64,000 nt of DNA. It comes from a virus. Its lineage: Duplodnaviria > Heunggongvirae > Uroviricota > Caudoviricetes. The position numbers and the translations under genes are program-made. Shown here one piece after another: positions 34,407 through 55,263 of this stretch. Positions within the stretch are counted from its first letter, which is position 1. Each line of letters starts with the position of its first letter. The stretch is taken from positions 32,001-96,000 of IMG/VR virus record IMGVR_UViG_2576861193_000004; one strand, given 5' to 3'. The notes beneath the pieces were generated by a model. It saw only the letters and a list, made by a program, of their open reading frames with translations. It was not told the origin of the DNA and did no database searches.

Positions 34407-34417
34407 ATCTATAAGGG

Positions 34418-35352: not shown

Positions 35353-35365
35353 TTAATGGAATCTT

Positions 35366-35386
35366 GCGCCCACTATGGGCGCTTTT
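35366..35386 (+). terminator. rho-independent terminator (copy 1 of repeated hairpin)
   Basis: GCGCCCACTATGGGCGC followed by TTTT. Confidence 0.6.
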
Positions 35387-35399
35387 AAGGAGCTTAATC

Positions 35400-35630: not shown

Positions 35631-35635
35631 AATCG

Positions 35636-35660
35636 AGCGCCCACTATGGGCGCTTTTTTC
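35636..35660 (+). terminator. rho-independent terminator (copy 2)
   Basis: GCGCCCACTATGGGCGC followed by T6, followed at 35683-35706 by a second hairpin GCGCCATCATTGGCGC plus T6. Confidence 0.65.
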
Positions 35661-36114
35661 GTTTCCAATACTCCCACCATAACGCGCCATCATTGGCGCG
35701 TTTTTTATTGTCTTTAACTCGCTCCAACAACATAAAAATAAGCACCAAAATAACGCCATAGACGCGCTTTTATATCCTTGTCAGTACATACCCATTACTT
35801 AACACATTAACGCGCTTAAAACGCGTTATATTGCGCTATAGAGTATGGTTAATCATTGGCTTTTAGTCTTGCTATGTGATCCGCGTTTATTTGTCGGCGC
35901 GGATCGGCTCTTTGTGTTGTTTTGTATCCGCTCGCGTATTATGTGCGCGTGATTTTTCACATAATCACACCACTTAATCACATATGTGATTACGCTACGA
36001 AAGAAATCTGGATGTCTCAGGCGACGAAAGTCATCATAATTTTCCCCGCTCACCTGTCCGACAACCGCTGGTTGGATTCCACCAGCTTCCCGATGTTTTT
36101 TCTACATAAAGGCG

Positions 36115-36240
36115 AATGCAGCCGTTTCCCGAAAAAATCCTGGCCGTTTCCCGTCGGCTCATGAATGCGTTCCTCGCCGTTTCTGAAAATTTCCCTGCGG
36201 CAGCTGGTGGCTATAGAGAAAGGGCCGTTTCTGGCCCTCT
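36115..36240. repeat. iteron cluster 1 (four GCCGTTTCC-type direct repeats)
   Basis: Copies at about 36121, 36143, 36176, 36224 (spacings 22, 33, 48 bp). Contains GCTGGTGG (Chi sequence) at 36203-36210. Confidence 0.7.
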
Positions 36241-36246
36241 TCTCAG

Positions 36247-36729
36247 TTACACGCCATCAAGGATGTGGATGCGGTTGCTTGCGTATACATTCAGCATAAA
36301 GTTAGCGCAAAACAGTTTCCATGTATCAACGCCAGCGGTATACGTAATGTTTTTGCATTTAATTGCATTGTTGGCGATCCGCATCCCCTGCGATACTGCT
36401 TCATCGTCGGAAAATTTGAACGACGATTGAGTTTTAATCCAGACAGAAATCTGCGTAGCGAACTCAATCAGCTTGGACTGGCAGAATCGCCCGGAGCGCA
36501 CCGGAAAGACGAACGTTCCGAATCCAGAATTTACCACATACGCTTTCTCAAATACCCGCGAGTAACGACGATTGCCAATGATGTCGCGTGCAATAATGCA
36601 TTTTTCTTGTGCTGACAGTTCTACCGTCTCATTGTCGCGCCATGCACCAAGTACTCGTTTTTCAATGTCAGAGAACGTTACAGCGATATTGCCATGTGCG
36701 GGTGCGTTTACAGTAGCGATAAAATTCAT
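36247..36729 (-). CDS. hypothetical protein (early-type cassette gene)
   Basis: ORF with the conserved promoter-palindrome cassette upstream. 3' end abuts iteron cluster 1. Confidence 0.5.
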   Translation of the reverse strand: MNFIATVNAPAHGNIAVTFSDIEKRVLGAWRDNETVELSAQEKCIIARDIIGNRRYSRVFEKAYVVNSGFGTFVFPVRSGRFCQSKLIEFATQISVWIKTQSSFKFSDDEAVSQGMRIANNAIKCKNITYTAGVDTWKLFCANFMLNVYASNRIHILDGV

Positions 36730-37079
36730 GATTAATTCCTTATCGTAAATAACAAATTGTTTTCTTGTTGGTGTTAATTATCGTTGTACGAATAAGGCGT
36801 CAAAGTGGAAAGTTGCGGTAGCCGGACGGGAACAGGTGGGTTTGTCGGTTGCCTGGAGGTAAGAGGTTGGTGTTTTTAGCCTGCGGGAAACAGGATGGTC
36901 ATTTAAGGCCACCAATGCTGATGGCCTTAATAATTATCGCCCTATTACGCTAAGGATCTTTTCCTCAACTGATTTGTTGTTGCGACTAAACTGCCTTGCG
37001 TATCTGATGACAGAAGAGGCGTTTTGCTTTCTGACCAATTCGACTCTTTCCTTCAGGGTTTTCTTGAAATCGCCCATAT

Positions 37080-37454
37080 TTACCACCAGGCGCAGAAGGT
37101 CAGTCTGTTATTGTGAAAGTCGTGGTTCCTGATCAGGTCTTCCACAAGTTTTTTCAGCTTATCCACGTCATGCCAGTAACCTTCGTCGTACTCCTGACTG
37201 CCGAAGAAAAAACCTTCCCGAGTAGGCAAGTACTCTTCGCAATTGCTTTCGTTTATGTGCATCAAATGAGCTTTCAGAAGACAAATGTCATTCATCGTTA
37301 ATTCTAAAAGCTCACAATTTTCGACTTCACCTACGTTGCGCTCCATCCACCCAACGAGCGCATTGAACTTACGGAAGTAAGCAACCTGCTTTCTGGATGC
37401 CTCGTTATTCAGATCGTTTTTAGGCTGTGTCTCGATATAGATATCAAGTCCCAT
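37080..37454 (-). CDS. hypothetical acidic protein
   Basis: ATG 37454 with SD AAGGAAA, conserved palindrome cassette upstream at about 37512-37528. Confidence 0.5.
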   Translation of the reverse strand: MGLDIYIETQPKNDLNNEASRKQVAYFRKFNALVGWMERNVGEVENCELLELTMNDICLLKAHLMHINESNCEEYLPTREGFFFGSQEYDEGYWHDVDKLKKLVEDLIRNHDFHNNRLTFCAWW

Positions 37455-37531
37455 GATGGTTTCCTTATTAAGTTGCTTCAGTGAAATCATTTTCACAAAT
37501 CAGATAAGGCAGAAAACAAATTGTTATCGGG

Positions 37532-37560
37532 CATAATAAAATGGCGCGGTTTACGCGCCA
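37532..37560 (-). terminator. rho-independent terminator
   Basis: Hairpin TGGCGCG-GTT-TACGCGCCA with T-run on minus strand, directly after the stop at 37572. Confidence 0.55.
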
Positions 37561-37571
37561 TTTAAAGAGGA

Positions 37572-37968
37572 TTAAGCGAATACGCTTTCAGGGATTAAGG
37601 TGTCGGCAGGAATGCCAGAGGTAATGCGCAGACCGTACTGGCCAATCCAGGTGGTGCTGGTGTTCAGGCTGGAGGCGAATACGGTGTTAACCATATTCAT
37701 CATGGTTTCAAACACCTCTTCATCAACCTGGCGGAAGTAGTTCTCGATTTTCAGCAGCAGCGGGTCAGTTGCATCGAGAATGGACTGGTATTGAGTCGCG
37801 TACTCGCCGCCGGAGGCATCACCTTTACGCACGATCGTACTGGCCTGGACTTCGGCACCAGTTTCGGTGTTGTACGTAACAACGGTAATTTTTGCCACAT
37901 TCTTACCTTCGGCGGTTTCAGAGGCATAGTAAACATCAACTGTCAGTTTTTCGCGTTTAACGGTCATT
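37572..37968 (-). CDS. hypothetical protein
   Basis: ATG about 37968 (MTVKREKL) with SD GGAGAG. Promoter-like TTGTAA-17-TAGAAT containing the GTAAGTATGTACTTAC palindrome upstream. Confidence 0.5.
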
Positions 37969-38030
37969 TCACTCTCCGTAGTGTCTTGGTTATTTTTATA
38001 TTCTATGATCGTAAGTATGTACTTACAATA

Positions 38031-38059
38031 CAAAAAAGCCCCGTAAGGATGGCGGGGCT
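38031..38059 (-). terminator. rho-independent terminator
   Basis: Minus strand AGCCCCGCCATCCTTACGGGGCTTTTTT, about 35 bp after the stop at 38094. Confidence 0.65.
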
Positions 38060-38093
38060 GTCGTACGGTCGACTAATTACCACTTGCACATTA

Positions 38094-38405
38094 TCAGGCT
38101 ATTGCCATCACTGATGCTCTCTGAATCTCTTGCTGGGCCACGCGGTTAACTTCCATCAAAGCCAGTTCGAGCTGATGTTCCGGCCACATTCTTTGAAATG
38201 CCACCCAGCCTTTTCCACGCTGGCGACGAACATTCATTACATAACGAGTAAAGGTGTTTTTATCGAAAGACACCGCTGTTTCACGGAACAGACGAATAGA
38301 GGTTCCATTGGCAACGATGTCCAGCAAAGTTAATTGAGCAACCAGCGCAGGCTTCTCTTTTCTCTTCTGGTCTTTGTCCAGACCAAGAACCAATGATTTT
38401 TTCAT
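38094..38405 (-). CDS. hypothetical basic protein (possible DNA-binding regulator)
   Basis: ATG 38405 (MKKSLVLG) with SD GGAG, conserved palindrome cassette immediately upstream, terminator downstream. Confidence 0.5.
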   Translation of the reverse strand: MKKSLVLGLDKDQKRKEKPALVAQLTLLDIVANGTSIRLFRETAVSFDKNTFTRYVMNVRRQRGKGWVAFQRMWPEHQLELALMEVNRVAQQEIQRASVMAIA

Positions 38406-38558
38406 CACAACTCCGTAAACAACTTGTTTTCTCAATGGCGTAAATAATACCAGTAAGAAAACGGCTACAAAGCATATTGATCAGGTGCATGAGCGATATG
38501 CAGGTTCTTCCCTGCGGCTATAGAGAAATTAAGCCAGCAATGCTGGCTTTGGTTGGGG

Positions 38559-38888
38559 TTACTCGAATACTTCAAGAAACTCCTGAACGTCCCAATGCTG
38601 GACGAGGTGAAGATAGACCTTAGAAATCACGTCATTTTCGCTATCGCATGTGAAGTAGTACTTCTGGCTGCGGTTGTATGTGTCCACACAAAATTCGCTC
38701 ATATCCATAAAGTCAGCATCTTCACCCATGTCGCAAATCATCAAAGCAGGTGCGTCATCACGAGTCATCAGCTCCAGCACCCATCTTGAATTAATCAGAG
38801 TGGAAGACCAACCTTCCAGCTCATAGAACTGGTCAAACTCTTTTTGAGTCAATTTCTTGATTTGGTTGATGTCGATATTTGCAAACAT
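38559..38888 (-). CDS. hypothetical highly acidic protein (candidate DNA mimic / anti-restriction)
   Basis: 109 aa with about 25 Asp/Glu against 8 Lys/Arg. ATG 38888 with SD AAGGA, conserved palindrome cassette upstream. Confidence 0.5.
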   Translation of the reverse strand: MFANIDINQIKKLTQKEFDQFYELEGWSSTLINSRWVLELMTRDDAPALMICDMGEDADFMDMSEFCVDTYNRSQKYYFTCDSENDVISKVYLHLVQHWDVQEFLEVFE

Positions 38889-39244
38889 AAAGCAATCCTT
38901 AAACAACATGTTTTCTTGATGGTGTTATTATCGCAATAACGCACAGGCGAAAAAGGATTTTATTCCGGTGAATGTGGTTTTGGCAGTGAGTTTTCAGGTT
39001 CAGTACCGAGTACACTTTTTACATTATTCTGATTTAGTGGCCGAAGGTGGCTGGTGGGCAGAATAATCATCTCCCCGAAAACCTACTGAAATCGATTGTG
39101 ACCCGCTGACTGTCTGGCACAATTACGCTGTAGTTGGGCATTCAGAGGGAATCCAGCGGTAAGTAAGTTCGCCTGCACGTGAGCGCCTCTCTTCTTCCCG
39201 CACATTACAGGTGGGTAGCCGCAACTCTCCCTATCGCTATACCG

Positions 39245-39385
39245 GTACGCCGCCGTTCCTGAACCGGCATCGAGCCTTTTCCCGAAATCCACACAGGCAA
39301 CTCGACCGTTTCCCTGAAAACCTCCAGCCGTTCCCCGAAGGCAACCCAGCCGTTTCTGTAGCGGGATGCAGCCTTTTCCCTGTAT
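39245..39385. repeat. iteron cluster 2 (six (A)GCCGTTTCCC-type direct repeats, 22-bp periodicity)
   Basis: Copies at about 39252, 39274, 39305, 39327, 39349, 39371; the last four form an uninterrupted 22-bp tandem array. Confidence 0.75.
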
Positions 39386-39419
39386 GGACCTAAGGCTGAC
39401 CGTAGGGGTGTTACGGGGG

Positions 39420-40330
39420 ATAAAATCAGGAGTTGATTAAATACGAAAAAGGAGGCGACACCCCTCCTTCCCTCCCCACTTATACATACCTGTCTTGTTC
39501 GCTATACATGTTGTGTTTTCTTCGTGTTTTATCTGTCTCAACCTCTCTATAGGCGTTAATGCTCACTCCTTCCAGAATGTTCTATACGGCGACTATTTCT
39601 GTTGGTGAATTGGGTGTGTTGTTTTCTCTGTCGGTGTATGTGGTTTCGTTCGTTTTGCGGTGGTTCTTCTATGGGGTGTTCTCGTCGTTTTGGTGATTGT
39701 TCTTCTCCGTGTATGGAGTAATGGCAGGTGGGCGATTCCTTTCGTTATTGTGTTTGAGTTGTTTGTCTGGAGTGTGAAAGGCTTTTGTAGTTATTCGTGT
39801 ATTGGGTAATGGCGTTTCCCGTGATTGTTATGTTTCGTGTCTTTTGGGATTGAGAGAAACCTTGCGGTTACAGGCTTCGTTGGGGTTTCAGTGATTCTGG
39901 TGTTTCTTCGCTGTTTGGGTAATGGCGTGTCGTGGGTATCGCGCGTATGAATGTTTTCGGATTGCCTGTGAAAGTTAGGTTGGTTGTCCGGTAGCCTGGG
40001 GAGAAGAGGTGGGTCTTTTCGGTAGCCTGCCATAAAGAGGTTGGTTGTTTTGGGGAATGGCATGTGTGTTATTTAGTTGTTTTGTTATGCCTGAAAATAA
40101 GTTGTTTATATGGTTGTGTAACGCAACGGGAACGATTTTGAGCGTGTGTTTTTGTTGGTGGTGTGTTGGGTCGTCTGTGGTGAAAATTGGACGCTGTGGC
40201 GCTGTCTGCTGCGTAGAATTACGGGTATAAGAAGTGATGTGTGAATACGTCAATTTTTTAGACCAAATCGGGTGAAAGCGTTGACGTTTCGTTGATCTGT
40301 TATTCAGTTGTTTTCTTATTGGTATAAACA
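39420..40330. other. ORF-poor, strongly G+T-skewed segment with periodic GGGTAATGGCG-like motifs
   Basis: Plus strand is almost only G and T over about 0.9 kb. Repeated motif at about 39712, 39800, 39918, 40052 and tandem CGGTAGCCTG / GGTTGGTTGT pairs. Track ORFs here have implausible composition. Confidence 0.6.
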
Positions 40331-40450
40331 ACGTTAACCTATTGATATTTAAAGGTGTGATTGCAGGTATGGAAGGAGAGTAGTGGCGATCAACAGATTC
40401 TTATAGAAAAGAATCAAATTGTGACCGCCATTATCAATAAGTTGCAACCG

Positions 40451-41020
40451 TTAGTTGTTCAGATAAACATTTGGAACACGGACGTAGAAGTTCCTGTCGC
40501 CGGTAAGTTCCAGAGTAATGTTAATGTCATTACCATTGTCTAGTGTAGCCGTTGCTCTATAGAACTTATCCGTCACCTTGTCCTCTATTGTCACCTTCAT
40601 ACATTTTGGTGCAGTCGAACCGTTATTCTCTTTCAGAATAGTTGTCACGAGAGGGCAGGCTGCTTCTTCAAGAGCAACCTCGTCCTTGTGTGGGATGCCG
40701 ATGAAGATAATCCAAGCCAGCGACGCAACGATTATGATAAATGGCACTCTGCTGCCTTTTGTAATAGTCGCGCGCTTCCAGAGATAGACAGGCAGGAGGA
40801 ATACCCCCCATAGAATTGAAGGTGGTTCACAGCCAGACTCCGATAGAGCCATTCTGTCAGCTACTAACAAACCGATGGTAGTTACACCCCCAATTATAAT
40901 AGCGTAATTGGTATACTCTTCCGGCGATACTCCAAAGAAGAAAGGCATGAACGCTAGAATCCACGCATAAATGTTATTCAGAGGTTTTGTTTGTTGGTTC
41001 TGGGTTTCCATCACATCCAT
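40451..41020 (-). CDS. integral membrane protein (about 4 TM helices)
   Basis: Hydrophobic segments (IYAWILAFMPFFFG, IIIGGVTTIGLLV, ILWGVFLLPVYLW, FIIIVASLAWIIFIGI) plus soluble C-terminal domain. Confidence 0.55.
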   Translation of the reverse strand: MDVMETQNQQTKPLNNIYAWILAFMPFFFGVSPEEYTNYAIIIGGVTTIGLLVADRMALSESGCEPPSILWGVFLLPVYLWKRATITKGSRVPFIIIVASLAWIIFIGIPHKDEVALEEAACPLVTTILKENNGSTAPKCMKVTIEDKVTDKFYRATATLDNGNDINITLELTGDRNFYVRVPNVYLNN

Positions 41021-41172
41021 TCCATCACATAAAAATCGCGTTTATATATTATCAATTTTCTCACTTGTATAACCTAAATACGCATCCGTTTATCAATCCA
41101 CCTTCCACAAACATCAGCTTTAGCTATGAAAAATAACAATCTCAAAGTGAAAACCATTATCATAGGAAACGA

Positions 41173-41358
41173 TTAGATGAGATGGTCTAATTCATCATCT
41201 ATCATTGCTTTAACACTTGAGTCATTAACCCCGTATTGATTTATGAGCCGTTTCAGCTCCGGTGAAAACTGAAGGTAGATATCGTGAGCGTTTTTCACTG
41301 TAGGTTCAACGCCACGCATTTCAAGCGCCTTTAGTAGATATGAGTCTTCTTTAAGCAT
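41173..41358 (-). CDS. hypothetical small protein
   Basis: 61-aa ORF between two early-type genes. Confidence 0.3.
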   Translation of the reverse strand: MLKEDSYLLKALEMRGVEPTVKNAHDIYLQFSPELKRLINQYGVNDSSVKAMIDDELDHLI

Positions 41359-41394
41359 AAATTCTCCGTTATCTAGTATGAAGCGATTGCCGGA

Positions 41395-41694
41395 TTACCA
41401 TTGCCAGCACTCTAGCCCTTCAACGACCGGTGCACCACAATCAAAATGTACAGAGTCAAAGCCTACATCAAGTACTTTCTGAATGTTAGCAATCGCGCCT
41501 TCGGATATACCATATCGACGCAAGTCATCTTTCCAGACATCATCCTGTAACCCGGCGTGGACAATACAACCGCCATCAATTTGTGAAACCCAATCCAGCT
41601 CATTGCTTGCGATCATGAATCGGCGAGCATCTTCCTCTGATGTATGAGATGAACTGATCAATGCCACCTGGTAGGCTTGGGTAATGTTCAACAT
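41395..41694 (-). CDS. hypothetical protein (early-type cassette gene)
   Basis: ORF preceded by two copies of the AACAAnTTGTT palindrome flanking a GATAAT -10-like hexamer. Starts about 160 bp downstream of the metG terminator. Confidence 0.5.
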   Translation of the reverse strand: MLNITQAYQVALISSSHTSEEDARRFMIASNELDWVSQIDGGCIVHAGLQDDVWKDDLRRYGISEGAIANIQKVLDVGFDSVHFDCGAPVVEGLECWQW

Positions 41695-41702
41695 TTCAAC
41701 AA

Positions 41703-41780
41703 CTCCGAAACAATTTGTTTTCTTATGTGGCTTATTATCTCAATCAACAAAAGGTAGAAAACAAATTGTTTTAGGGTTTG
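41703..41780 (-). promoter_or_regulatory. conserved promoter-palindrome cassette (two AACAAnTTGTT sites flanking GATAAT)
   Basis: GAAACAATTTGTTTTC (41707-41722) and GAAAACAAATTGTTTTA (41757-41773) around a minus-strand GATAAT hexamer. The same cassette is upstream of genes starting at 36729, 37454, 38405, 38888, 55263, 55986 and terS. Confidence 0.6.
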
Positions 41781-41807
41781 TTAAAGTCAGAAGGGGTTGT
41801 GTCTATA

Positions 41808-41836
41808 TGAAAATGCCCAGCGTGTTGCCGGGCATT
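41808..41836 (-). terminator. metG terminator
   Basis: Hairpin ATGCCC...GGGCAT followed by T-run on minus strand, 20 bp after the metG stop. Confidence 0.6.
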
Positions 41837-41855
41837 GCGAACAGAGGTTGTTTAA

Positions 41856-43889
41856 TTACTTAACCTGGTGGCCTGGTTTAGCACCAGCATCCGGGCTTAA
41901 CAGGAAGATATCTTTCCCGCCGGGGCCAGCAGCCATCACCATGCCTTCGGAGATACCGAAGCGCATTTTACGCGGAGCCAGGTTAGCCACCATAATGGTG
42001 TGACGACCAATCAGTGCCTGTGGGTCTGGATAAGCAGAACGGATGCCTGAGAAGACATTACGCTTTTCACCACCGAGATCCAGTGTCAGACGCAGCAGTT
42101 TGTCAGAACCTTCGACAAACTCCGCGTTTTCAATCAGCGCCACACGCAGGTCAACTTTGGCGAAGTCGTCAAAGGTGATGGTTTCCTGAATCGGGTCGTC
42201 AGCCAGTGGGCCAGTTACCGGTGCAGCTGTGGCTTTCACTTCTTCTTTGGATGCTTCCACCAGTGCTTCCACCTGTTTCATATCGATACGGTTATACAGT
42301 GCCTTGAACGGATTCACTTTATGGCCCAGCAGCGGTTGCTGGATACCATCCCAGGTCAGTTCTGTATTCAGGAATGCTTCTGCACGTTCAGTCAGTTTCG
42401 GCAGTACCGGTTTCAGGTACGTCATCAGCACGCGGAACAGGTTAATGCCCATAGAGCAAATCGCCTGCAGGTCGGCATCGCGGCCTTCCTGCTTCGCCAC
42501 CACCCACGGAGCCTGTTCATCAACATAGCGGTTAGCCAGGTCAGCCAGTGACATGATTTCACGGATAGCTTTGCCAAATTCGCGGCTTTCCCACGCTTCA
42601 CCAATCACTTCAGCGGCATCAGTGAAGGTTTTGTACAGTTGCGGGTCAGCCAGTTCGCTTGCCAGCACGCCGTCAAAACGTTTGTTGATAAAACCTGCAT
42701 TACGGGAGGCCAGGTTAACCACTTTGTTCACGATATCGGCATTCACGCGCTGAACAAAATCTTCCAGGTTGAGATCGATATCATCAATGCGCGAAGAGAG
42801 TTTCGCAGTGTAGTAGTAACGCAGGCTGTCGGCGTCAAAATGATTCAGCCAGGTGCTGGCTTTAATAAAGGTGCCGCGAGACTTGGACATCTTCGCGCCG
42901 TTCACCGTCACATAGCCGTGAACAAACAGGTTGGTCGGCTTGCGGAAGTTGCTGCCTTCCAGCATGGCAGGCCAGAACAGGCTGTGGAAGTAAACGATAT
43001 CTTTACCGATGAAGTGGTACAGCTCGGCGGTGGAGTCTTTCTTCCAGTATTCGTCGAAGCTGGTAGTGTCGCCGCGTTTGTCGCACAGATTCTTGAAGGA
43101 ACCCATGTAGCCAATCGGCGCGTCCAGCCAGACGTAGAAATATTTGCCCGGTGCGTTCGGAATTTCAAAACCGAAGTACGGCGCATCGCGGGAGATATCC
43201 CACTGTTGCAGGCCAGATTCAAACCACTCCTGCATTTTGTTTGCCACCTGCTCCTGCAACGCACCGCTGCGGGTCCATGCCTGCAACATTTCGCTGAAAG
43301 AGGGCAGATCAAAGAAGAAGTGTTCAGAATCACGCATTACCGGCGTAGCGCCAGAAACCACCGATTTCGGCTCGATCAATTCAGTCGGGCTATATGTTGC
43401 GCCGCAGACTTCACAGTTATCGCCGTATTGATCTGGCGCTTTACATTTAGGACAGGTGCCTTTTACAAAACGGTCCGGCAGGAACATGCCTTTTTCCGGG
43501 TCGTACAACTGAGAGATAGTGCGGTTTTTAATAAAACCGTTCTCTTTCAGGCGAGTATAGATAAGCTCAGACAACTGACGGTTCTCTTCGCTGTGCGTCG
43601 AGTGATAGTTGTCATAGCTGATGTTAAAGCCTGCGAAATCAGTCTGGTGTTCCTGACTCATTTCGCCAATCATCTGCTCCGGTGTGATACCAAGCTGCTG
43701 TGCTTTCAGCATGATCGGCGTACCGTGGGCATCGTCGGCACAGATGAAATTAACCTCGTGGCCGCGCATTCGCTGGTAACGAACCCAGACATCAGCCTGG
43801 ATGTGCTCCAGCATATGGCCGAGGTGGATTGAGCCGTTAGCGTACGGCAGCGCGCACGTCACCAGAATTTTCTTCGCGACTTGGGTCAT
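41856..43889 (-). CDS. metG: methionine--tRNA ligase
   Basis: 677-aa product essentially identical by eye to E. coli MetG ([29 protein letters not shown]...KMSKS...). Track ORF begins at an upstream in-frame start; true ATG at 43889. Confidence 0.95.
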
Positions 43890-44046
43890 AGTAGGCATTA
43901 CTTCTTTGTAGTGAAAAGGGGCTTGATAGTAACAAAATGGCCTTATGTCTGCCATGTGATAACAGCATTTCTCATAAATGATTAAATGTCGTAGCTGGAG
44001 TACACTACAAGGCGACAATTGCGCAAATTAAAATAAAGGAGACGGG

Positions 44047-45147
44047 ATGAGCGAGTCCAAATCGCCGGATGCCCTGAGAGCAATGGTAGCCGGTACGCTG
44101 GCTAATTTTCAGCACCCAACCCTGAAACACAACCTGACTACGCTTAAAGCGTTACACCATGTTGCGTTGATGGATGACACACTGCATGTCGAACTAATCA
44201 TGCCTTTCGTGTGGAATAAGCCTTTTGAAGACCTGAAAGAGCAATGTAGTGGTGATCTGCTCCGTATCACTGGCGCAAAGGCTATTGACTGGAAGCTGTC
44301 GTACAACATTGCCACGCTTAAGCGCGTCAAAAACCAACCAGGCATTAATGGCGTTAAGAACATTATCGCCGTCAGCTCAGGCAAGGGCGGCGTGGGTAAA
44401 TCCTCCACGGCGGTAAACCTGGCACTGGCGTTGGCTGCTGAAGGTGCGAAAGTTGGTATTTTGGATGCCGATATCTATGGTCCATCAATTCCAACCATGC
44501 TGGGCGCGGAAAACCAACGTCCAACCTCACCTGACGGTACTCACATGGCACCTATCATGTCTCATGGCCTGGCAACCAACTCTATTGGTTATCTGGTCAC
44601 CGACGACAATGCAATGGTGTGGCGTGGACCGATGGCCAGCAAGGCGCTGATGCAGATGTTGCAGGAAACTCTATGGCCTGATCTGGACTATCTCGTTCTC
44701 GATATGCCGCCGGGCACTGGTGATATTCAGTTGACGCTGGCGCAGAACATTCCTGTAACTGGTGCGGTTGTGGTAACTACGCCGCAAGACATCGCGCTGA
44801 TCGATGCGAAGAAAGGCATTGTGATGTTCGAAAAAGTCGAAGTGCCGGTACTGGGTATCGTCGAAAACATGAGTGTGCATATTTGCAGTAACTGCGGTCA
44901 TCACGAGCCAATTTTTGGCACCGGTGGCGCACAGAAACTGGCCGAGAAATACAACACGCAGTTGTTAGGCCAAATGCCACTTCATATCTCTCTTCGTGAA
45001 GATCTGGATAACGGAACACCAACCGTTATTAGTCGTCCAGATAGCGAATTTACGGCTATTTATCGTGACCTCGCAGATCGCGTTGCTGCCCAAATGTATT
45101 GGCAAGGTGAAGTAATACCTGGCGAAATCGCATTCCGCGCAGTGTGA
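44047..45147 (+). CDS. apbC: iron-sulfur cluster carrier protein ApbC/Mrp
   Basis: P-loop GKGGVGKSSTAVNLA, CxxC motif (CSNCGHHEP), divergent from metG as in E. coli. Confidence 0.95.
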   Translation: MSESKSPDALRAMVAGTLANFQHPTLKHNLTTLKALHHVALMDDTLHVELIMPFVWNKPFEDLKEQCSGDLLRITGAKAIDWKLSYNIATLKRVKNQPGINGVKNIIAVSSGKGGVGKSSTAVNLALALAAEGAKVGILDADIYGPSIPTMLGAENQRPTSPDGTHMAPIMSHGLATNSIGYLVTDDNAMVWRGPMASKALMQMLQETLWPDLDYLVLDMPPGTGDIQLTLAQNIPVTGAVVVTTPQDIALIDAKKGIVMFEKVEVPVLGIVENMSVHICSNCGHHEPIFGTGGAQKLAEKYNTQLLGQMPLHISLREDLDNGTPTVISRPDSEFTAIYRDLADRVAAQMYWQGEVIPGEIAFRAV

Positions 45148-45176
45148 TAAAAAGGCGGTGCATTGCACCGCCTAAT
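45148..45176 (-). terminator. hairpin terminator between apbC and the umuD'-like gene
   Basis: Perfect hairpin GGCGGTGCA-T-TGCACCGCC. The T-run lies on the minus-strand side, so it is oriented for the umuD'-like gene. Confidence 0.55.
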
Positions 45177-45184
45177 CAGTTCTC

Positions 45185-45574
45185 CTACATCACGGGACAA
45201 TCATCAAACTCGCCACTTCTTGCGTCGTTGATAATGTGAGTGATCACACCAAACACGGCATTGCTGCCCGTGCATCCATCGTCATCCTTTGGCAATGCTT
45301 CCTTCTTACCGGTTCTTAAATCCTCCAGATGCTGACGTGGGTACTTCCGGTATCTTTTTACGCGATATTCCCCATCCAGAGCGCATACAAGCAGAGAACC
45401 ATCAACCGGGGTAAGTGAGGAATCGACCACCAGCAATGCACCCTGTAATATTCCCTCACGATGATGACTATCAGCTGCCCTCATGAAGTAGGTCGCTGAA
45501 GGATGTCTAATTATCTGCTGATCAAGAGAAATACGGCTCTCAGCATAATCCGCCGCAGGAGAAGGGAAGCCCAT
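45185..45574 (-). CDS. UmuD'-like (HumD-like) S24 peptidase-fold protein lacking the N-terminal cleavable arm
   Basis: Aligns with UmuD from about residue 25 (GFPSPAADY...HPSATYF). Ser (DSH) and Lys (RVKRY) positions retained. In-frame stop 5 codons upstream of ATG, SD GAGGTG. Confidence 0.8.
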   Translation of the reverse strand: MGFPSPAADYAESRISLDQQIIRHPSATYFMRAADSHHREGILQGALLVVDSSLTPVDGSLLVCALDGEYRVKRYRKYPRQHLEDLRTGKKEALPKDDDGCTGSNAVFGVITHIINDARSGEFDDCPVM

Positions 45575-45592
45575 AGCGTTTTCACCTCAGAG

Positions 45593-45612
45593 TACTGTTT
45601 ATCCATACAGTA
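45593..45612 (-). promoter_or_regulatory. LexA (SOS) box
   Basis: TACTGTTTATCCATACAGTA matches CTGT-N8-ACAG; located about 20 bp upstream of the umuD'-like ATG. Confidence 0.75.
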
Positions 45613-45672
45613 TACATTAAAGATGCTTGAAGTGTGCAATAGCGCGATGCTTTGCGCTCGCCTGGTGGCGCG

Positions 45673-45936
45673 TTATTTTTTGGCTATATCTTCTTTCTGA
45701 TATACCGGATCGTTTCCTTTTGGCAGCAGGAGGCTTAACTGCCGGTAGTGCCGTAGCCGTTCCATGAAATAGGTGCGCAGGTTCTCAGGTTGCTCACGGG
45801 CTACCTGTTCCGCTATGACGGGTATGTTCAATCGCTCTTTGTAGGCAACCCCCCTGGCAGCCAGGTCAACGTTAACTTTATTCCTTTCTTCCTGGCTTTT
45901 AGCTGCTATGTTCCATTCGTTCATATTAAATCCCAT
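45673..45936 (-). CDS. hypothetical protein
   Basis: 87-aa ORF upstream of the LexA box and umuD'-like gene. Start uncertain (ATG 45936 or 45924), weak SD. Confidence 0.35.
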
Positions 45937-46392
45937 CCAGAATAATTGAATAACGGCTATTATTTAGTCGCCGCAATATCTTCAAAGTTTTTTTTCTCAC
46001 CCCATTGCTTTTTGCGCACAGCTTATCTGGCTTGCGGTGCGCGAAATGTAAATTCGCCTTCAGAGTTATCCACAAAGTTATGCACTTGCAACGGGGCCAT
46101 TTTCCTCATACCGTGTTTGCACACACAGGAAATGGATATTTTATTAATTGAATTTTATTAAATAATAATGATAAGGAGAAAATTTGAGATGTAATCATGA
46201 CATTAATAGATAGGGCCTGCATTACAGGCCCCAACTACATCAAGGAATTCACAGTTCCCTGATTTTTATACCGAAAACATGTGCCGTAAGTTCACGTTAA
46301 CGACTTTCTTTCACCGAATCCAACTATATAGAGGTTGGGTTTCTACGTCAACGTGAGAGCACGCAGCTTTACATTAGACGAGGATTACCCTG

Positions 46393-46530
46393 ATGATTGT
46401 ATTTTTTCAGTTTCTAAGTGCATTTTTAAATGCGCCTGTTCTTAGCCAAGTGCTGGCGATTGTCTTCATCGTGGTTCTGATATGGTTTTTCAAGTCAGTG
46501 ATAAACAGAGGCGTGCGCTGGCTTATTTAA
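46393..46530 (+). CDS. small hydrophobic peptide (45 aa, single predicted TM helix)
   Basis: ATG 46393 preceded by SD GAGGA at 9 nt. Sequence MIVFFQFLSAFLNAPVLSQVLAIVFIVVLIWFFKSVINRGVRWLI. Below the ORF-track size cutoff. Confidence 0.3.
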   Translation: MIVFFQFLSAFLNAPVLSQVLAIVFIVVLIWFFKSVINRGVRWLI

Positions 46531-47062
46531 TGTCGCGATGAGATATTAATTCCCTTGCTGTTTAACCATTTTTTGTGTGTGCTGGTGAGCGTGTGAAGGC
46601 TCAATTTGTTGCCCACCAGTATTTACTATTTCTAAGCTCCACAGTGTCACTTCCGCACAAACAACTTAGCGCGGAATCAGTATTCGGCCCAAGATGTAAA
46701 AAGCCAACCTGCGTTATGGTTCGCATTTCCAAATAGTGTTCTGAACGCCCTTGCCGGGCGCGAGATGTAGATTAGCGTTCACGCTATGCTGATATACGGC
46801 TTTAGACTTTCCATATTGCTGACAGGCTTTATCTGCGGTTTTTTGCAGGCTATCCAGCCCATACCAGCCATCAGACTGGATGCTTACCTTTTCACCGTCA
46901 TTGTATTGCACCATCGCGCACCCAAACATGGCTATCATCGCACCGACAATACCACTTTTCCAAAAAGCTCTAATTAGGTCATTCGTTACCTAATGTCCGA
47001 ACTGCTAAAGCATCCAAGTTGCTGTAGAATCACCGCCAATTACATAAGCCTGAAATAAGTGG

Positions 47063-48625
47063 ATGAAAATGACAAGTATTCAACAACGTGCAGAGCTTCA
47101 TCGTCAAATCTGGCAAATTGCTAACGATGTCAGGGGTTCGGTCGATGGATGGGATTTTAAGCAATACGTTCTGGGCGCACTTTTCTACCGTTTTATCAGC
47201 GAAAATTTTTCCAGTTATATTGAAGCCGGTGATGACAGTATCTGTTATGCGAAACTGGATGACAGCGTAATTACTGATGACATTAAAGACGATGCCATCA
47301 AAACTAAAGGCTACTTCATCTACCCCAGTCAGCTTTTCTGCAACGTAGCTGCGAAAGCAAATACTAATGACAGACTGAATGCAGATTTAAACAGCATCTT
47401 CGTTGCTATCGAAAGTTCTGCTTACGGTTATCCTTCAGAAGCAGACATCAAAGGTTTGTTTGCTGATTTCGATACCACCAGTAACCGCCTGGGTAACACC
47501 GTTAAAGATAAAAATGCCCGCCTGGCTGCGGTTCTGAAAGGGGTTGAAGGGTTAAAACTTGGTGACTTCAACGAACATCAGATTGACCTGTTCGGTGATG
47601 CCTATGAGTTCCTGATTTCTAACTATGCGGCAAATGCCGGTAAGTCAGGCGGTGAGTTCTTTACACCGCAGCACGTCTCCAGGCTGATTGCACAACTGGC
47701 AATGCATGGCCAGACCCACGTTAACAAAATCTACGACCCGGCAGCGGGTTCCGGCTCACTGTTGTTGCAGGCGAAAAAACAGTTTGATAACCACATCATC
47801 GAAGAAGGCTTTTTCGGTCAGGAAATCAACCATACGACCTATAACCTGGCGCGTATGAACATGTTTTTGCACAATATCAACTACGACAAGTTTGATATCA
47901 AGCTGGGTAATACACTGACTGAGCCGCACTTCAGAGATGAAAAACCGTTTGACGCCATCGTATCTAACCCACCGTATTCGGTGAAATGGATTGGCAGCGA
48001 TGACCCGACGCTGATTAACGATGAGCGTTTTGCCCCGGCTGGCGTTCTGGCCCCCAAATCCAAAGCTGACTTTGCGTTTGTATTACATGCACTGAACTAT
48101 CTTTCTGCCAAAGGTCGTGCTGCGATTGTCTGCTTCCCGGGTATTTTTTACCGTGGCGGCGCGGAGCAGAAAATCCGTCAGTATCTGGTCGATAATAACT
48201 ATGTCGAAACCGTGATTTCACTGGCACCGAACCTGTTCTTTGGCACCACCATTGCAGTAAACATTCTGGTGCTGTCTAAACATAAAACGGATACCAACGT
48301 TCAGTTTATTGACGCCAGCGAACTGTTCAAAAAAGAGACTAACAACAATATCCTGACCGATGCCCATATCGAACAGATTATGCAGGTATTTGCCAGCAAG
48401 GAAGATGTTGCTCATCTGGCGAAATCTGTCACGTTTGAGACCGTTGTCGCGAATGACTATAACCTGTCGGTAAGCAGCTATGTGGAAGCGAAAGATACTC
48501 GCGAAATTATCGATATCGCTGAGTTGAATGCAGAACTGAAAACCACGGTCAGCAAAATCGACCAGTTGCGTAAAGATATTGATGCGATTGTGGCTGAAAT
48601 TGAAGGCTGCGAGGTGCAGAAATGA
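47063..48625 (+). CDS. hsdM: type I restriction-modification methyltransferase subunit
   Basis: N-terminal HsdM pattern ([10 protein letters not shown]...[17 protein letters not shown]), N6-adenine MTase motif NPPYS, 520 aa as recalled for EcoR124I HsdM. Confidence 0.9.
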
Positions 48626-49857
48626 GCGAGTTGAGTTATCTGGAAAAATTGCTGGATGGGGTTGAGGTTGAGTGGTTGCCATTGGGGAAACTAGGTGAAT
48701 TAGTTCGTGGAAATGGATTGCCTAAGTCTGATTTTACCGAATCTGGGGTTCCTGCCATACACTATGGTCAGATATATACTTTTTACGGATTATCTACTGA
48801 AACAACAAAGTCATTTGTTTCCCATGAAACGGCGAAGAAGCTTAAAAAGGTTAACTCTGGTGATGTTGTTATTACTAACACAAGCGAAAATTTTACTGAT
48901 GTTGGTAAGGCGCTTGTTTATCTAGGTAAAGAGCAAGCTGTTACTGGTGGCCATGCAACTATTTTCAAGCCAAATAGCACTATTATTGGGAAATACTTTG
49001 CCTATTTCACGCAAACGGATTCTTTTGCAAATGAGAAAAGGAAATACTCCAAGGGAACTAAAGTAATTGATGTGTCTGCATCGGATATGGCGAAAATTAT
49101 TATCCCTATCCCCTGTCCGGAAAATCCCAAAAAATCCCTTGCTATCCAGTCTGAAATCGTTCGGATTCTGGACAAATTTACTGCACTTACCGCTGAGCTT
49201 ACCGCTGAGCTTACCATGCGTAAAAAACAGTACAACTACTATCGCGACCAATTGCTGAGTTTTAAAGAAGGTGAGGTTGAGTGGAAAACTTTGGGAGAAG
49301 TGGCTCAATACTCGAAAACAAGAATTAGTTTCGAACTACTTGATGAAAGGAATTATGTTGGCGTAGATAATCTGCTGCAAAACAGAGCAGGAAAATCATT
49401 ATCTAATCATGTACCCACATCAGGTAAATTAACGGAGTTTATACCTAACGATATACTGATTGGGAATATCCGCCCATATTTGAAAAAAATTTGGCAAGCA
49501 GATTGTATCGGTGGAACAAATGGCGATGTATTGGTTATTCGTTGCATAGATAGCTCAATAAATACCAGATATCTATATCAGATTTTGGCAGATGACAAAT
49601 TCTTTGAATACAACATGCAGCATGCTAAAGGAGCAAAAATGCCGCGTGGCAGTAAAGAGGATATAATGAAATACCCAATCCCTGTACCGCCACTCACCTT
49701 GCAAGCTCGCATTGTCGAAATACTCAACAAATTCGATACCCTGACAAACTCCATCACTGAAGGTCTTCCGCGTGAAATCGAATTACGCCAGAAACAATAC
49801 GAATACTACCGTGATTTACTGTTCAGTTTCCCAAAACCTGAAACTGTCAGTAATTAA
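48622..49857 (+). CDS. hsdS: type I restriction-modification specificity subunit, type IC-like
   Basis: Two target-recognition domains separated by a central conserved region carrying the TAELTAEL repeat. C-terminal YYRDLL repeat of the conserved motif. Overlaps hsdM stop. Confidence 0.9.
49186..49209 (+). repeat. 2 x 12-bp tandem repeat CTTACCGCTGAG encoding TAEL-TAEL in HsdS
   Basis: Perfect tandem duplication inside the hsdS central conserved region. Confidence 0.9.
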
Positions 49858-49978
49858 TTGACCATTGCTACCGACCGGGCCACCTTAACACCCGGTCTGT
49901 ATATAGACTATTTTTTACGCGCCGGAAGTCACTCTTAACGCCCTTCCGGCCCTTGCCAGGCGGCACAAAGGATGCGCT

Positions 49979-52900
49979 ATGACTCATCAAACACACACCA
50001 TTGCTGAATCCAATAACTTTATCGTCCTTGATAAGTACATCAAAGCTGAGCAAACAAGCGACAGCTACCAGAGCGAATCGGACCTGGAACGTGAACTGAT
50101 TCAGGACCTGCGGAATCAGGGTTATGAATTTATTTCCGTAAAATCACAGTCGGCAATGCTGTCCAATGTTCGGGAACAGCTTCAGAGCCTCAATGGTGTG
50201 ATGTTTAATGACAGCGAGTGGCGGCGCTTCACGGAGCAGTATCTGGACAATCCCAGCGATGGTATTCTGGATAAGACCCGTAAAATCCATATCGACTATA
50301 TCTGCGACTTTATTTTTGACGACGGGCGTCTTGAGAACATCTATCTGATCGATAAAAAGAATCTCATGCGCAACAAAGTGCAGATTATCCAGCAGTTTGA
50401 ACAGGCAGGTTCTCATGCTAACCGTTATGACGTCACGATCCTGGTTAATGGCTTGCCTCTGGTGCAAATCGAACTGAAAAAGCGCGGCGTGGCGATTCGT
50501 GAGGCTTTCAACCAGATACATCGTTACAGCAAAGAGAGTTTTAACAGCGAAAATTCCCTGTTTAAGTATCTGCAACTGTTTGTCATTTCTAACGGCACCG
50601 ATACCCGTTATTTTGCCAACACCACAAAGCGCGATAAAAACAGTTTTGACTTCACCATGAACTGGGCGAAATCAGACAACACGCTGATTAAAGACCTCAA
50701 AGACTTTACCGCTACCTTTTTCCAGAAACATACCCTGCTTAATGTTCTGGTGAACTACAGCGTGTTTGACAGTAGTCAGACGCTACTGGTGATGCGACCG
50801 TACCAGATTGCAGCTACCGAACGGATCTTATGGAAAATCAACAGCTCCTATAAAGCGAAAAACTGGTCTAACCCCGAAAGCGGTGGCTTTATCTGGCACA
50901 CCACTGGTTCCGGTAAAACACTGACCAGCTTTAAAGCCGCGCGTCTGGCAACTGAACTGGACTTTATTGATAAAGTCTTCTTCGTGGTCGACAGGAAAGA
51001 CCTCGATTACCAGACCATGAAGGAATATCAGCGTTTTTCGCCAGACAGCGTCAACGGCTCGGAAAATACCGCAGGTCTTAAACGAAATCTGGATAAGGAC
51101 GATAACAAAATTATCGTCACCACTATTCAGAAACTTAATAACCTGATGAAAGCAGAAAGCGACCTGCCTGTATACAATCAGCAAGTGGTGTTTATATTTG
51201 ATGAATGCCACCGCAGCCAGTTTGGAGAAGCGCAGAAAAACCTGAAGAAGAAATTCAAACGCTATTATCAGTTTGGTTTTACCGGCACCCCTATTTTCCC
51301 GGAAAATGCCTTAGGCTCAGAAACGACCGCCAGCGTATTTGGTCGTGAATTGCATTCGTATGTAATTACCGATGCGATTCGTGACGAAAAAGTGCTCAAA
51401 TTCAAGGTGGACTACAACGATGTGCGGCCACAGTTTAAGTCTTTAGAGACAGAAACTGACGAGAAAAAACTGAGTGCGGCTGAAAATCAGCAGGCGTTTC
51501 TTCATCCCATGCGTATTCAGGAAATCACGCAATATATCCTGAACAACTTCCGCCAGAAGACTCACCGTACTTACCCCGGCTCCAAAGGTTTTAATGCCAT
51601 GCTGGCAGTAAGCAGCGTGGATGCCGCGAAAGCCTATTACGCGACGTTTAAACGGTTACAAGAGGAAGCCGCTAATAAATCTGCTACCTATAAACCACTG
51701 CGTGTTGCGACAATCTTCTCCTTTGCCGCCAATGAAGAACAAAATGCCATTGGTGAAATTTCCGATGAAACTTTTGATACCAGCGCAATGGACAGCAGTG
51801 CTAAAGAGTTTCTTGACGCTGCAATTCGTGAGTATAACAGCTATTTTAAAACTAACTTCAGCACCGACAGTAACGGTTTTCAGAACTACTATCGTGATTT
51901 AGCCCAACGGGTTAAAAATCAGGATATCGATCTGTTAATTGTCGTTGGGATGTTTTTAACCGGCTTCGACGCTCCAACATTGAACACGCTATTCGTCGAT
52001 AAAAACTTGCGTTTTCACGGCCTGATGCAGGCATTCTCCCGTACCAACCGCATTTATGACGCTACTAAAACCTTCGGTAACATCGTCACTTTTCGGGATC
52101 TGGAACGCTCAACCATTGATGCCATAACGCTGTTTGGTGATAAAAATACTAAAAATGTGGTGTTAGAAAAGAGTTATGCAGAGTATATGGAAGGCTTTAC
52201 TGATGCTGCTACAGGTGAAGCTAAACGCGGCTTTATGGCAGTAGTTTCAGAACTGGAACAACGGTTCCCTGACCCTGCCAGTATTGAAAGTGAAAAAGAG
52301 AAGAAAGACTTCGTTAAACTGTTTGGCGAATACCTGCGTGCCGAGAACATCCTGCAAAACTATGATGAATTTGCCACGCTGAAAGCCCTGCAACAAATCG
52401 ATCTTAGCGATCCTGTTGCGGTAGAAAAATTCAAAGAAGAACATTATGTGGATGATGAAAAGTTCGCTGAATTGCAAACGATTCGTCTCCCTGCTGAACG
52501 CAAGATTCAGGATTATCGTTCTGCCTATAACGATATTCGTGACTGGCAGCGCCGCGAGAAAGAAGCTGATAAAAAAGAAAAATCAACCACTGACTGGGAT
52601 GACGTGGTTTTTGAGGTCGATTTGCTGAAGTCTCAGGAAATAAACCTGGATTATATCCTTGGACTGATTTTCGAACACAACAGACAAAATAAAGGCAAGG
52701 GCGAAATGATCGAAGAGGTCAAACGCTTAATTCGTTCAAGCCTGGGGAACCGGGCGAAAGAGGGCCTGGTGGTCGATTTTATTCAGCAAACGAACCTGGA
52801 TGATTTACCAGACAAAGCCAGCATCATTGACGCGTTCTTTACCTTTGCTCAACACGAACAGCTACGTGAAGCAGAAGCGTTGATTAAAGAAGAAAATCTC

Positions 52901-53095
52901 AATGAAGAGGCGGCGAAACGCTATATTCGCACGTCTTTAAAACGCGAATACGCCACCGAAAATGGCACAGAATTAAACGAGACATTACCAAAACTTAGTC
53001 CGTTAAACCCGCAATATAAAACGAAAAAACAGACGGTTTTCCAGAAAATCGTCACGTTTATTGAAAAGTTCAAAGGAGTAGGTGGGCAGATATAG
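49979..53095 (+). CDS. hsdR: type I restriction enzyme endonuclease/translocase subunit
   Basis: 1038 aa with SF2 helicase motifs (TGSGKT, DECHRS, GFTGTP). Confidence 0.9.
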
Positions 53096-53153
53096 TGTAT
53101 TAATCTGAACCAGATCTGGCAGATATCTGTGCAAATTGCAGATAGCTGTCAGA

Positions 53154-53564
53154 TCAAGCCATCGTAGGGATGTCTGTATCCACTTTGAACTCCGGTACAC
53201 CAACGAACTCTTTAACCTTCATCTGATAGCCGGTTCTGTCAGTTTTGATGACTTCCTGCTTGCCCTCGATAAATTGCTCACGCCACTCGTCGCGACGGGA
53301 AGCTGGCATGATCAGCAAAACGTTAGTCATATCCGTGACCTTCCTCCAGTACTCGGCCCAAATATTCTGTTTCACCCATTCCAGATCGACTTTATCCAGC
53401 CAAGCTCGATTCAAACGTGAGCGATCTTCATCTGGTCGATGGTTTAGTCTCAGCAGGCGATTAATCATGTTGTGGCGTTCGTCGCCATAAACGAAGTCGT
53501 GTACCTGATACATGAAGGCGATCTCTTTCTCGCACTCGGCCACGATTTCGTGGATGACATTCAT
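53154..53564 (-). CDS. hypothetical protein
   Basis: 136-aa ORF convergent with hsdR, SD AGGAA before ATG 53564. Confidence 0.5.
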   Translation of the reverse strand: MNVIHEIVAECEKEIAFMYQVHDFVYGDERHNMINRLLRLNHRPDEDRSRLNRAWLDKVDLEWVKQNIWAEYWRKVTDMTNVLLIMPASRRDEWREQFIEGKQEVIKTDRTGYQMKVKEFVGVPEFKVDTDIPTMA

Positions 53565-53740
53565 TTCCTGCCGATAGTCGATAGTCGATAGCAGCGTTTG
53601 AGTTGGGATCGTCGATGATGGAAAGGGCTGTATTCATAATAGCACCATTAAGAAGTGATTTGTTTAATGGTGCTATTATTTCAAAAATGAAAAGGTACTA
53701 AATAGAAATAAACCGGCAATCCTTCAAATAAAGGCATTGT

Positions 53741-54355
53741 CTAATCATACTTGGAGGTATTTATCACCAGAATTTTGTTTGTATAAATCTTCTTAATATC
53801 CCATGTGACATTACCGGAATACCATTGGCCGTTATACACTTGGTTTCCAGTTGCACCTGTCATAGTTACATAGACAGGTCTGTCGTAATCGGTTCGTCTA
53901 TAGTTATATACCCCAACCATAGCAGGCATTACTGCGCACGGATACCCCATATCTATTGTAAATTGTGGGTCAGAAATAGTGATAAGTTTCGCATCAAGGG
54001 GCATCATCTCACCGTGATACACCATTGCGCCTGCGCTGTTATACATGGCAATGCCATAGCCAGAATGTGGTAACACCATATCAGAAAAAGCATAAACTGT
54101 TATTGTTCCGGGGCTACCATTTACCTGATGCAATCTGAGAGCATTGTATCCGTTACTATTTTCATGAATAAACATCATGTTCGCCTTATTACTGCTTTTT
54201 ATGAAGAAAAAGCATGATTTGTTTGATGGGATTGATGTTTTAAAAACAGAACCTTTAGATGCAGACATTGTCCCTTTATTAATCAGATTTTGCGGAGTAA
54301 ATTCTGGACTCATCCACAAACCTCCATCTGATTGAGTAATTGACATCCCGAACAT
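53741..54355 (-). CDS. hypothetical beta-rich protein (Asn/Tyr/Gly/Thr-rich)
   Basis: AT-rich ORF. Track start 54412 is TTG. ATG at 54355 lies 2 nt after the stop of the upstream 93-aa gene. Confidence 0.45.
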   Translation of the reverse strand: MFGMSITQSDGGLWMSPEFTPQNLINKGTMSASKGSVFKTSIPSNKSCFFFIKSSNKANMMFIHENSNGYNALRLHQVNGSPGTITVYAFSDMVLPHSGYGIAMYNSAGAMVYHGEMMPLDAKLITISDPQFTIDMGYPCAVMPAMVGVYNYRRTDYDRPVYVTMTGATGNQVYNGQWYSGNVTWDIKKIYTNKILVINTSKYD

Positions 54356-54357
54356 AA

Positions 54358-54639
54358 TTATCCCCAGTATGTGTATATGTAAGAACCAAGCCCCGTATAT
54401 AAATTTGACCAACTAACCGTATTTCCATTAATAGTAACTTTCGGAACAGGTAAATTGATGTAGTTGTCGTTGTTAAGAGGCATCAATGACCACACGGCAT
54501 GAAGTGATTTACCCGGTGGCGGATTAGAGTACGTCTTAGAGCCTGATGACGCCGTAAATCGATCAAGAAAAAAAATAGGTGTAAGGAAGCCAGTAACGTT
54601 AATTCCTTTATTGTTGTAAATCCCTGTACCGTATGCCAT
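54358..54639 (-). CDS. hypothetical protein (93 aa)
   Basis: ATG 54639 with SD AGGGTG, terminator-like hairpin upstream, coupled to the following gene. Confidence 0.45.
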   Translation of the reverse strand: MAYGTGIYNNKGINVTGFLTPIFFLDRFTASSGSKTYSNPPPGKSLHAVWSLMPLNNDNYINLPVPKVTINGNTVSWSNLYTGLGSYIYTYWG

Positions 54640-54693
54640 TTTTCACCCTTGTTTTTATCAACACAATATGGCCGATCATGCGGCCATATCAGA

Positions 54694-55263
54694 TCAATTA
54701 GAGCTTTGAAAGACTTTGTGTGGTTGTGTTGCGAGGTTATGTCGATGGCTTAACTCACGCATCATGTCTTCAAGGCGACTCTTTGTGTCGTCGAGTTGGT
54801 CGGCCATTGCTCCCAAAAGCTGACGAACGGCCATCGGATCATCGCTGTTTAGTGATGGCATTTTATAACCCGCCTGAGAAGACATAAGATTGAACGCAGA
54901 CATCAACATCGTTAGAGAGGATTTAAGCCCAGCAATTTCACGATCTTTGCTGGCAATAATCGCCTCACTCTTGTTAGTGTCATCAGTACGTTGAGTCTCG
55001 CTCACCATATCCAAAGTCGCCTGCAACTTATCAGCGAGCTCTTTTTCAGCAAGATAATGAACGCCGAAATGATGTGCTAAAGCTACAACCTGAGTTGGTT
55101 CTTCAAAGGTGGAATTAAAATTAAGTACTGTAAACAGTCTCTCAAATATGGAAACGTCTTCTGTTCCCCGAACAATACCTAACATTTTGACAAGTTCATT
55201 AGCATCCATTTCTTCGAATAGGGCGTTTTGTTCATCAGCTATTGCTTTGCATTTCTCGCACAT
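54694..55263 (-). CDS. hypothetical protein with N-terminal CxxC
   Basis: 189-aa ORF (MCEKCK...) preceded by the conserved promoter-palindrome cassette. Confidence 0.5.
   Translation of the reverse strand: MCEKCKAIADEQNALFEEMDANELVKMLGIVRGTEDVSIFERLFTVLNFNSTFEEPTQVVALAHHFGVHYLAEKELADKLQATLDMVSETQRTDDTNKSEAIIASKDREIAGLKSSLTMLMSAFNLMSSQAGYKMPSLNSDDPMAVRQLLGAMADQLDDTKSRLEDMMRELSHRHNLATQPHKVFQSSN

Follow-up and report, generated by a model that had tools for sequence, protein, structure and literature searches.

HumD has been known from bacteriophage P1 since 1999. The P1 protein (P1_gp103 of NC_005856, YP_006569.1) has 129 residues, begins MGFPSPAADY and ends with the tail SGEFDDCPV, and it is encoded without a umuC gene in an extrachromosomal prophage, with hot upstream. 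It reportedly dimerises, binds both UmuC and RecA filaments, and complements in recA430 and delta-umuDC backgrounds; native expression is said to be poor, with strong complementation requiring a high copy number. Two related proteins, gp26 of N15 and gp23 of phiKO2, are found in linear phage-plasmids. As in P1, they have a truncated start, the tail GEFDDCPV, a LexA box upstream and no umuC. They differ in having Thr at the position of the catalytic Ser, and in that their genes adjoin parAB and are not accompanied by hot. In phiKO2, gene 23 and a dinI homologue diverge from a common LexA site.

The UmuD' protein of E. coli (PDB 1UMU, 1I4V, 8GMT) belongs to the same fold family, has the same Ser/Lys dyad and is likewise LexA-controlled. 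The gene described here differs from it in that the product is made directly in truncated form, with neither arm nor cleavage site, and in that it does not lie in a umuC operon. The umuD homologues of plasmids and ICEs, mucA, impA, samA and rumA, also encode SOS-regulated accessory subunits of the S24 family on mobile elements (PMC11541004). In contrast to HumD, their products are full-length and need RecA-mediated cleavage, and they are encoded in an operon with a cognate umuC-type gene. They are only about 38–48% identical to the HumD described here.

The gene lies in a 64-kb stretch of phage DNA, referred to below as the window. A sequence-only reading had drawn attention to positions 45185–45612, a range that corresponds to the coding sequence together with its LexA box, the gene being on the minus strand:

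45185..45574, minus strand: humD coding sequence from the ORF listing, 129 aa plus a TAG stop codon, pre-truncated UmuD'-type product
45583..45588, minus strand: Shine-Dalgarno sequence GAGGTG, read from the sequence, 8 nt before the humD ATG and kept in P1
45593..45612, no strand assigned: LexA (SOS) box TACTGTTTATCCATACAGTA, a 20-nt palindrome, TACTGTATGGATAAACAGTA on the gene strand; identified by pattern match and by alignment with P1

The translated product has the same length as P1 HumD, the same N-terminus (Met-Gly-Phe-Pro-Ser-Pro, continuing as in MGFPSPAADY) and the same C-terminal tail. In an alignment with E. coli K-12 UmuD (from NC_000913), Met1-Gly2 fall on Cys24-Gly25, so that Gly2 is placed on Gly25, the first residue of UmuD'. 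Neither the N-terminal arm nor a Cys/Ala-Gly cleavage site is present in the 129 residues. This bears out the proposal that the product begins at the equivalent of the UmuD self-cleavage site. A longer humD, with an arm supplied from an in-frame start further upstream, was named in the sequence-only reading as a finding that would speak against it. It can be ruled out: upstream of the ATG the reading frame is closed by three stops, at distances of 4, 8 and 14 codons, and therefore no N-terminal arm can be restored. The best match among solved structures is UmuD' (PDB 1UMU, E=6.7e-23), the first residue of that chain aligning with residue 2 here. Further matches are to 1I4V and 8GMT.

The assignment to HumD is clear. 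The NCBIfam HumD equivalog NF051876 gives 219.8 bits against a cutoff of 120, with residues 1–129 covering model positions 1–129 of 129, whereas the model for full-length autoproteolytic UmuD (NCBIfam NF007621 / PRK10276) gives 87 bits, below its cutoff of 110. The Pfam domain Peptidase_S24 (PF00717) is found with 37.9 bits (cutoff 23.3), and the PHROGs label is "UmuD-like protein". Alignment with UmuD and with P1 HumD, which had been suggested as a check, shows the truncated start and an identity to P1 HumD of 91.5% over all 129 residues. Identity is 73% to phiKO2 gp23 and 68% to N15 gp26, and falls to 42–44% for E. coli UmuD from Gly25 onwards (42% over UmuD residues 25–139), from which the protein also differs by a 4-residue insertion and a 10-residue C-terminal extension (K-12 UmuD). 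It is identical to RefSeq WP_000506720.1, named "HumD family translesion DNA polymerase" by PGAP, and to a protein of Escherichia phage Cyrano. Judged by its sequence, the protein has every defining trait of the HumD family that a sequence can reveal, and falls outside the full-length UmuD family. The locus had been described as mirroring P1 humD. The analogy is correct but understated: the gene can be identified as the orthologue of P1 humD, that is as humD itself and not a mere parallel, because it scores above the HumD equivalog cutoff, because of the 91.5% protein identity, and because it lies in a block of DNA about 85–90% identical to P1 (described below).

The catalytic residues of UmuD, Ser60 and Lys97, correspond to Ser36 and Lys73 here, and both are also present in P1 HumD. 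The equivalent residues in the other two phage-plasmids are found in the following genes:

L008 (N15), 1501–1884: HumD homologue gp26, Thr at the equivalent of Ser60, Lys invariant
L009 (phiKO2), 1501–1881: HumD homologue gp23, Thr at the equivalent of Ser60, Lys invariant

The conserved dyad raises the question of whether HumD could function as an active S24 peptidase in trans, with host UmuD, LexA or a phage repressor as its substrate. Cleavage between molecules is known for UmuD-like proteins, and the dyad is kept both here and in P1. However, Ser at the nucleophile position is not a requirement of the HumD family, given the Thr found in N15 and phiKO2 next to a conserved Lys, and UmuD' also keeps the dyad, with no known role as a protease. 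We consider this reading very improbable.

The LexA box had been placed about 20 bp upstream of the gene. The box is indeed perfect and canonical, but the distance to the humD ATG is 18 nt, compared to 19 nt in P1. The pattern TACTGTN8ACAGTA (12 positions) matches the window exactly once, compared to an expectation of 0.01 from shuffles. The bare core CTGTN8ACAG is not significant, with 2 found in the window against 0.88 expected. The second of these cores, CTGTTTCACGGAACAG at 38276–38291, was rejected as a LexA site on the grounds that it lacks the TA flanks and that the core occurs at chance frequency; in a relative plasmid its position falls within a hypothetical CDS, and a role as a LexA site is improbable. 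No exact core precedes hot, where inspection by eye shows only a one-mismatch GTGT-N8-ACAG near 46112–46127.

The box at 45593–45612 aligns with P1 NC_005856 87545–87564, which is annotated as 'LexA binding site in the regulatory region of lxr and humD', and humD is described as a LexA-regulated SOS gene (PMC9603915). The box is kept upstream of humD in Cyrano although the surrounding DNA has been replaced. Canonical LexA boxes also precede gene 26 of N15 (TACTGTATAAAAAAACAGTT) and gene 23 of phiKO2 (TACTGTATGCATATACAGTA, annotated there as a LexA site). LexA boxes are therefore present upstream of the humD homologues of P1, Cyrano, N15 and phiKO2, the flanking DNA of the last three being unrelated. 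A consensus scan of the region gave a possible promoter:

45609..45638, minus strand: sigma-70-like promoter TGCACA-18 nt-TATACT, 9/12 matches to the consensus, such promoter-like pairs being no more frequent than in shuffles

The -10-like hexamer of this candidate (45609–45614), a match to the consensus alone, shares positions with the LexA box at its distal end. We regard the box as a predicted LexA operator in the humD promoter region.

Downstream of humD, the following features are found:

45153..45173, minus strand: intrinsic-terminator-like hairpin from a terminator scan, 9 bp stem with 7 G-C pairs, then TTTTAT
44047–45147, plus strand: apbC/mrp, convergent with humD, product 95% identical to K-12 Mrp

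The hairpin lies 12 nt past the humD stop codon, between humD and apbC, and the segment 45153–45173 is not homologous to the DNA downstream of K-12 mrp. In P1, the position downstream of humD is occupied by phd-doc in place of the hairpin and the captured apbC. No cognate umuC-type gene is present in the operon. As the sequence-only reading stated, the next gene is apbC on the other strand, and there is no umuC partner: a tblastn search of the 64-kb window with E. coli K-12 UmuC gave only noise (E values of at least 0.9), and no Y-family polymerase is found among the 123 annotated features of the complete collinear plasmid NZ_AP027904.1. A hidden umuC is ruled out by the same two observations. 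The presumed partner of this HumD is the host UmuC. The gene had been called an orphan beside apbC. The absence of umuC stands, but the locus is not a chromosomal one, as described below, and humD is here no more an orphan than it is in P1, N15 or phiKO2.

On this basis we consider it likely that humD provides the phage-plasmid with an SOS-induced supply of pre-activated UmuD' for the host UmuC. In undamaged cells, host LexA would occupy the operator at 45593–45612 and keep humD switched off. At the humD promoter, the -10 region and the likely start of transcription share sequence with the predicted operator, whose occupation would thus repress transcription. DNA damage would activate RecA, leading to self-cleavage of LexA and transcription of humD. 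The product would be a dimeric protein of the UmuD' type which, because it is made without the 24-residue N-terminal arm, should need no RecA-mediated self-cleavage. Together with host UmuC, which is SOS-induced simultaneously, the HumD dimer would form a Pol V-like translesion polymerase, and this complex may increase damage tolerance and mutagenesis in the cell as well as in the extrachromosomal prophage. We infer dimerisation, binding to UmuC and to RecA filaments, complementation in place of UmuD', and control by LexA for this copy because of its 91.5% identity to P1 HumD.

The neighbourhood of the gene has the look of a chromosome. The accessory region and other relevant genes of the window are as follows:

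41856/41859–43889, minus strand: metG, product 99% identical to K-12 MetG
47063–~53400, plus strand: type I restriction-modification system, with hsdM at 47063–48625, hsdS at 48622–49857, and hsdR downstream by homology to relatives
60301–60855, minus strand: DnaQ/RNase T-type 3'-5' exonuclease, 184 aa, PF00929, phrog_192 'DNA polymerase exonuclease subunit'

Both metG and apbC are full-length, with the divergent layout that they have on the chromosome. A chromosomal island beside apbC is nevertheless ruled out, since all parts of the window match plasmids or SSU5-like phages, and since the apbC stop codon marks the limit of homology to the K-12 chromosome. Positions 45150–46200 and 38000–56000 match E. 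coli plasmids of about 106–116 kb at 97–99.7% identity, and for positions 1–25000 the identity is 97% with phage Cyrano and about 80% with Salmonella phage SSU5. Chromosomal places number 0 for 25001–38000 and 2 for 56000–64000, all others being plasmid. The genes metG and apbC are captured host copies, whose chromosomal appearance is misleading: as the phage-plasmid carries such copies, a metG-apbC neighbourhood is no proof of a chromosomal locus. With them the phage-plasmid carries a second methionyl-tRNA synthetase and an Fe-S carrier.

The window is part of an SSU5/pSLy3-like E. coli phage-plasmid of about 110 kb. In the collinear plasmid NZ_AP027904.1 the siphovirus morphogenesis module is complete (terminase, portal, capsid, tape measure and tail fibres), and the annotation further includes RepA, ParB, dnaE, primase, DnaB-like helicase, ligase, nrdAB, thyA, DHFR, rnhA and tRNAs. 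In the published classification, the pSLy3 group of the SSU5 supercommunity consists of siphophage-type elements of about 110 kb with an Escherichia host (PMC11652158). The features of this element fit the SSU5 supercommunity, and its size, Escherichia host and siphophage type fit the pSLy3 group. The first part of the window (1–3800) is mosaic, with side tail fibre and tail fibre assembly genes that are 90–93% identical to unrelated lambdoid or P2-like E. coli phages; these first ~3.8 kb match such phages rather than Cyrano or SSU5. It may be added that dnaE, found in relatives outside the window, the exonuclease, and the theta homologue Hot would make up a set of alpha, epsilon-like and theta-like proteins, possibly a Pol III-like core of the element's own.

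Within this backbone, humD belongs to a segment that is shared with P1:

45185..46540, minus strand: P1-derived block upfM-upfN-upfO-hot-humD, with lxr absent between hot and humD; about 85–90% nucleotide identity, left boundary (~46540) approximate
45673..45936, minus strand: hot, DNA polymerase III theta homologue, 87 aa; Pfam DNA_pol3_theta 107.6 bits, NCBIfam PRK10969, phrog_1105

The block, about 1.35 kb long, was defined by pairwise DNA alignment against P1 NC_005856 84584–90970. The order in P1 is upfM-upfN-upfO-hot, followed by lxr on the other strand, the annotated LexA site, and humD. In the window, the ~640 nt of P1 that hold the divergent lxr are replaced by about 26 nt, and a tblastn search with P1 Lxr finds no match in the 64 kb. 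With lxr absent, the gene directly upstream of humD is therefore hot, on the same strand, so that here, in contrast to P1, hot abuts the humD promoter. Beyond hot (45937–46540), P1 homology runs on through the equivalents of upfM, upfN and upfO, which are of unknown function. Within this P1-conserved stretch there is also an ORF for a strongly hydrophobic protein of 45 aa (46393–46530, plus strand), opposite in direction to hot. The type I restriction-modification genes lie just past the block, in the same accessory region.

Hot is 87% identical to P1 Hot over 87 aa, with a dN/dS against P1 of 0.13. The adjacency of the two genes would fit a different function, namely that HumD and the theta homologue Hot form a cassette that acts on a Pol III core and not via UmuC. 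The target would be the core of the host, or else the element's own DnaE and DnaQ-like exonuclease, and after damage the cassette might slow replication or stabilise it. UmuD and UmuD' are reported to interact with three Pol III subunits, alpha, epsilon and beta, and theta in turn is a partner of epsilon. Further points that are consistent with this reading are that hot and humD are co-oriented and travel jointly in a block common to P1 and to the element, and that the exonuclease is encoded at 60301–60855, with dnaE in relatives. However, the pairing is not obligatory. Cyrano has the identical HumD and LexA box with unrelated DNA and no hot upstream, N15 and phiKO2 carry humD without hot, and in the close relative pAPSLC-111K hot is cut by a premature stop codon (61 aa as annotated). 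In P1 itself the two genes have separate promoters with lxr between them, and P1 HumD is reported to work with UmuC. A modulator of the replisome is thus, in our view, improbable. The same holds for the broader proposal that hot-humD is a portable, SOS-wired replisome-tuning cassette, which would move between phage-plasmids of unrelated lineage, P1-like myoviruses and SSU5-like siphoviruses, and act on the Pol III-like core of the element (DnaE in relatives, the exonuclease at 60301–60855, and Hot as theta), and not only on host UmuC. That several carriers of humD have no hot argues against it.

The supply of UmuD' to host UmuC therefore remains the preferred function. The gene might instead be a passenger, having arrived with a P1-derived recombination block, and have no selected role here. 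Its surroundings would suit such a history: the block is set in a mosaic accessory region, flanked by captured metG and apbC on one side and by the type I restriction-modification system on the other, lxr has been deleted, and hot is decaying in a relative. The region is found in a minority of backbone relatives, at a coverage of at least 80% in about 40–52 E. coli plasmid records, compared to about 200–260 for the backbone. Moreover, hot-lxr-humD is listed among the highly variable regions of P1-like phage-plasmids (given there as pmgT...hot-lxr-humD; PMC9603915). Being a variable, recombination-prone accessory block that only a minority of the backbone carriers possess, the region, and with it humD, is therefore dispensable for the element.

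Against the absence of a selected role, the open reading frame, Shine-Dalgarno sequence and LexA box of humD are all intact, and the box has been retained even where, as in Cyrano, the upstream DNA was replaced. Between this gene and P1 humD, dS is 0.80 and dN 0.042. A dN/dS of 0.05 across such a distance indicates strong, long-term purifying selection, and it is for this reason that we regard the protein as kept under selection. In PLSDB, copies with 90% identity or more are encoded by at least 641 plasmid records (149 at 99% or more, 32 at 95–99%, and 460 at 90–95%), so that identical or near-identical proteins are found in at least 149 records. A mere passenger is unlikely in the light of these observations, and provision of a ready-made UmuD' is again the reading that we favour.

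Both the gene and the kind of element that carries it were already known. HumD has its own NCBI equivalog model, and the exact protein already carries a name in RefSeq. What is mildly new is descriptive only: an upfM-hot-humD block in an SSU5-like backbone, with loss of lxr, beside captured copies of metG and apbC. P1 is a P1-like myovirus and the present element an SSU5-like siphovirus phage-plasmid, and the accessory block has been transferred from the one kind into the other, which fits the gene flow reported between phage-plasmids. LexA-controlled humD thereby recurs in four phage-plasmid lineages, P1, N15, phiKO2 and the SSU5-like elements.
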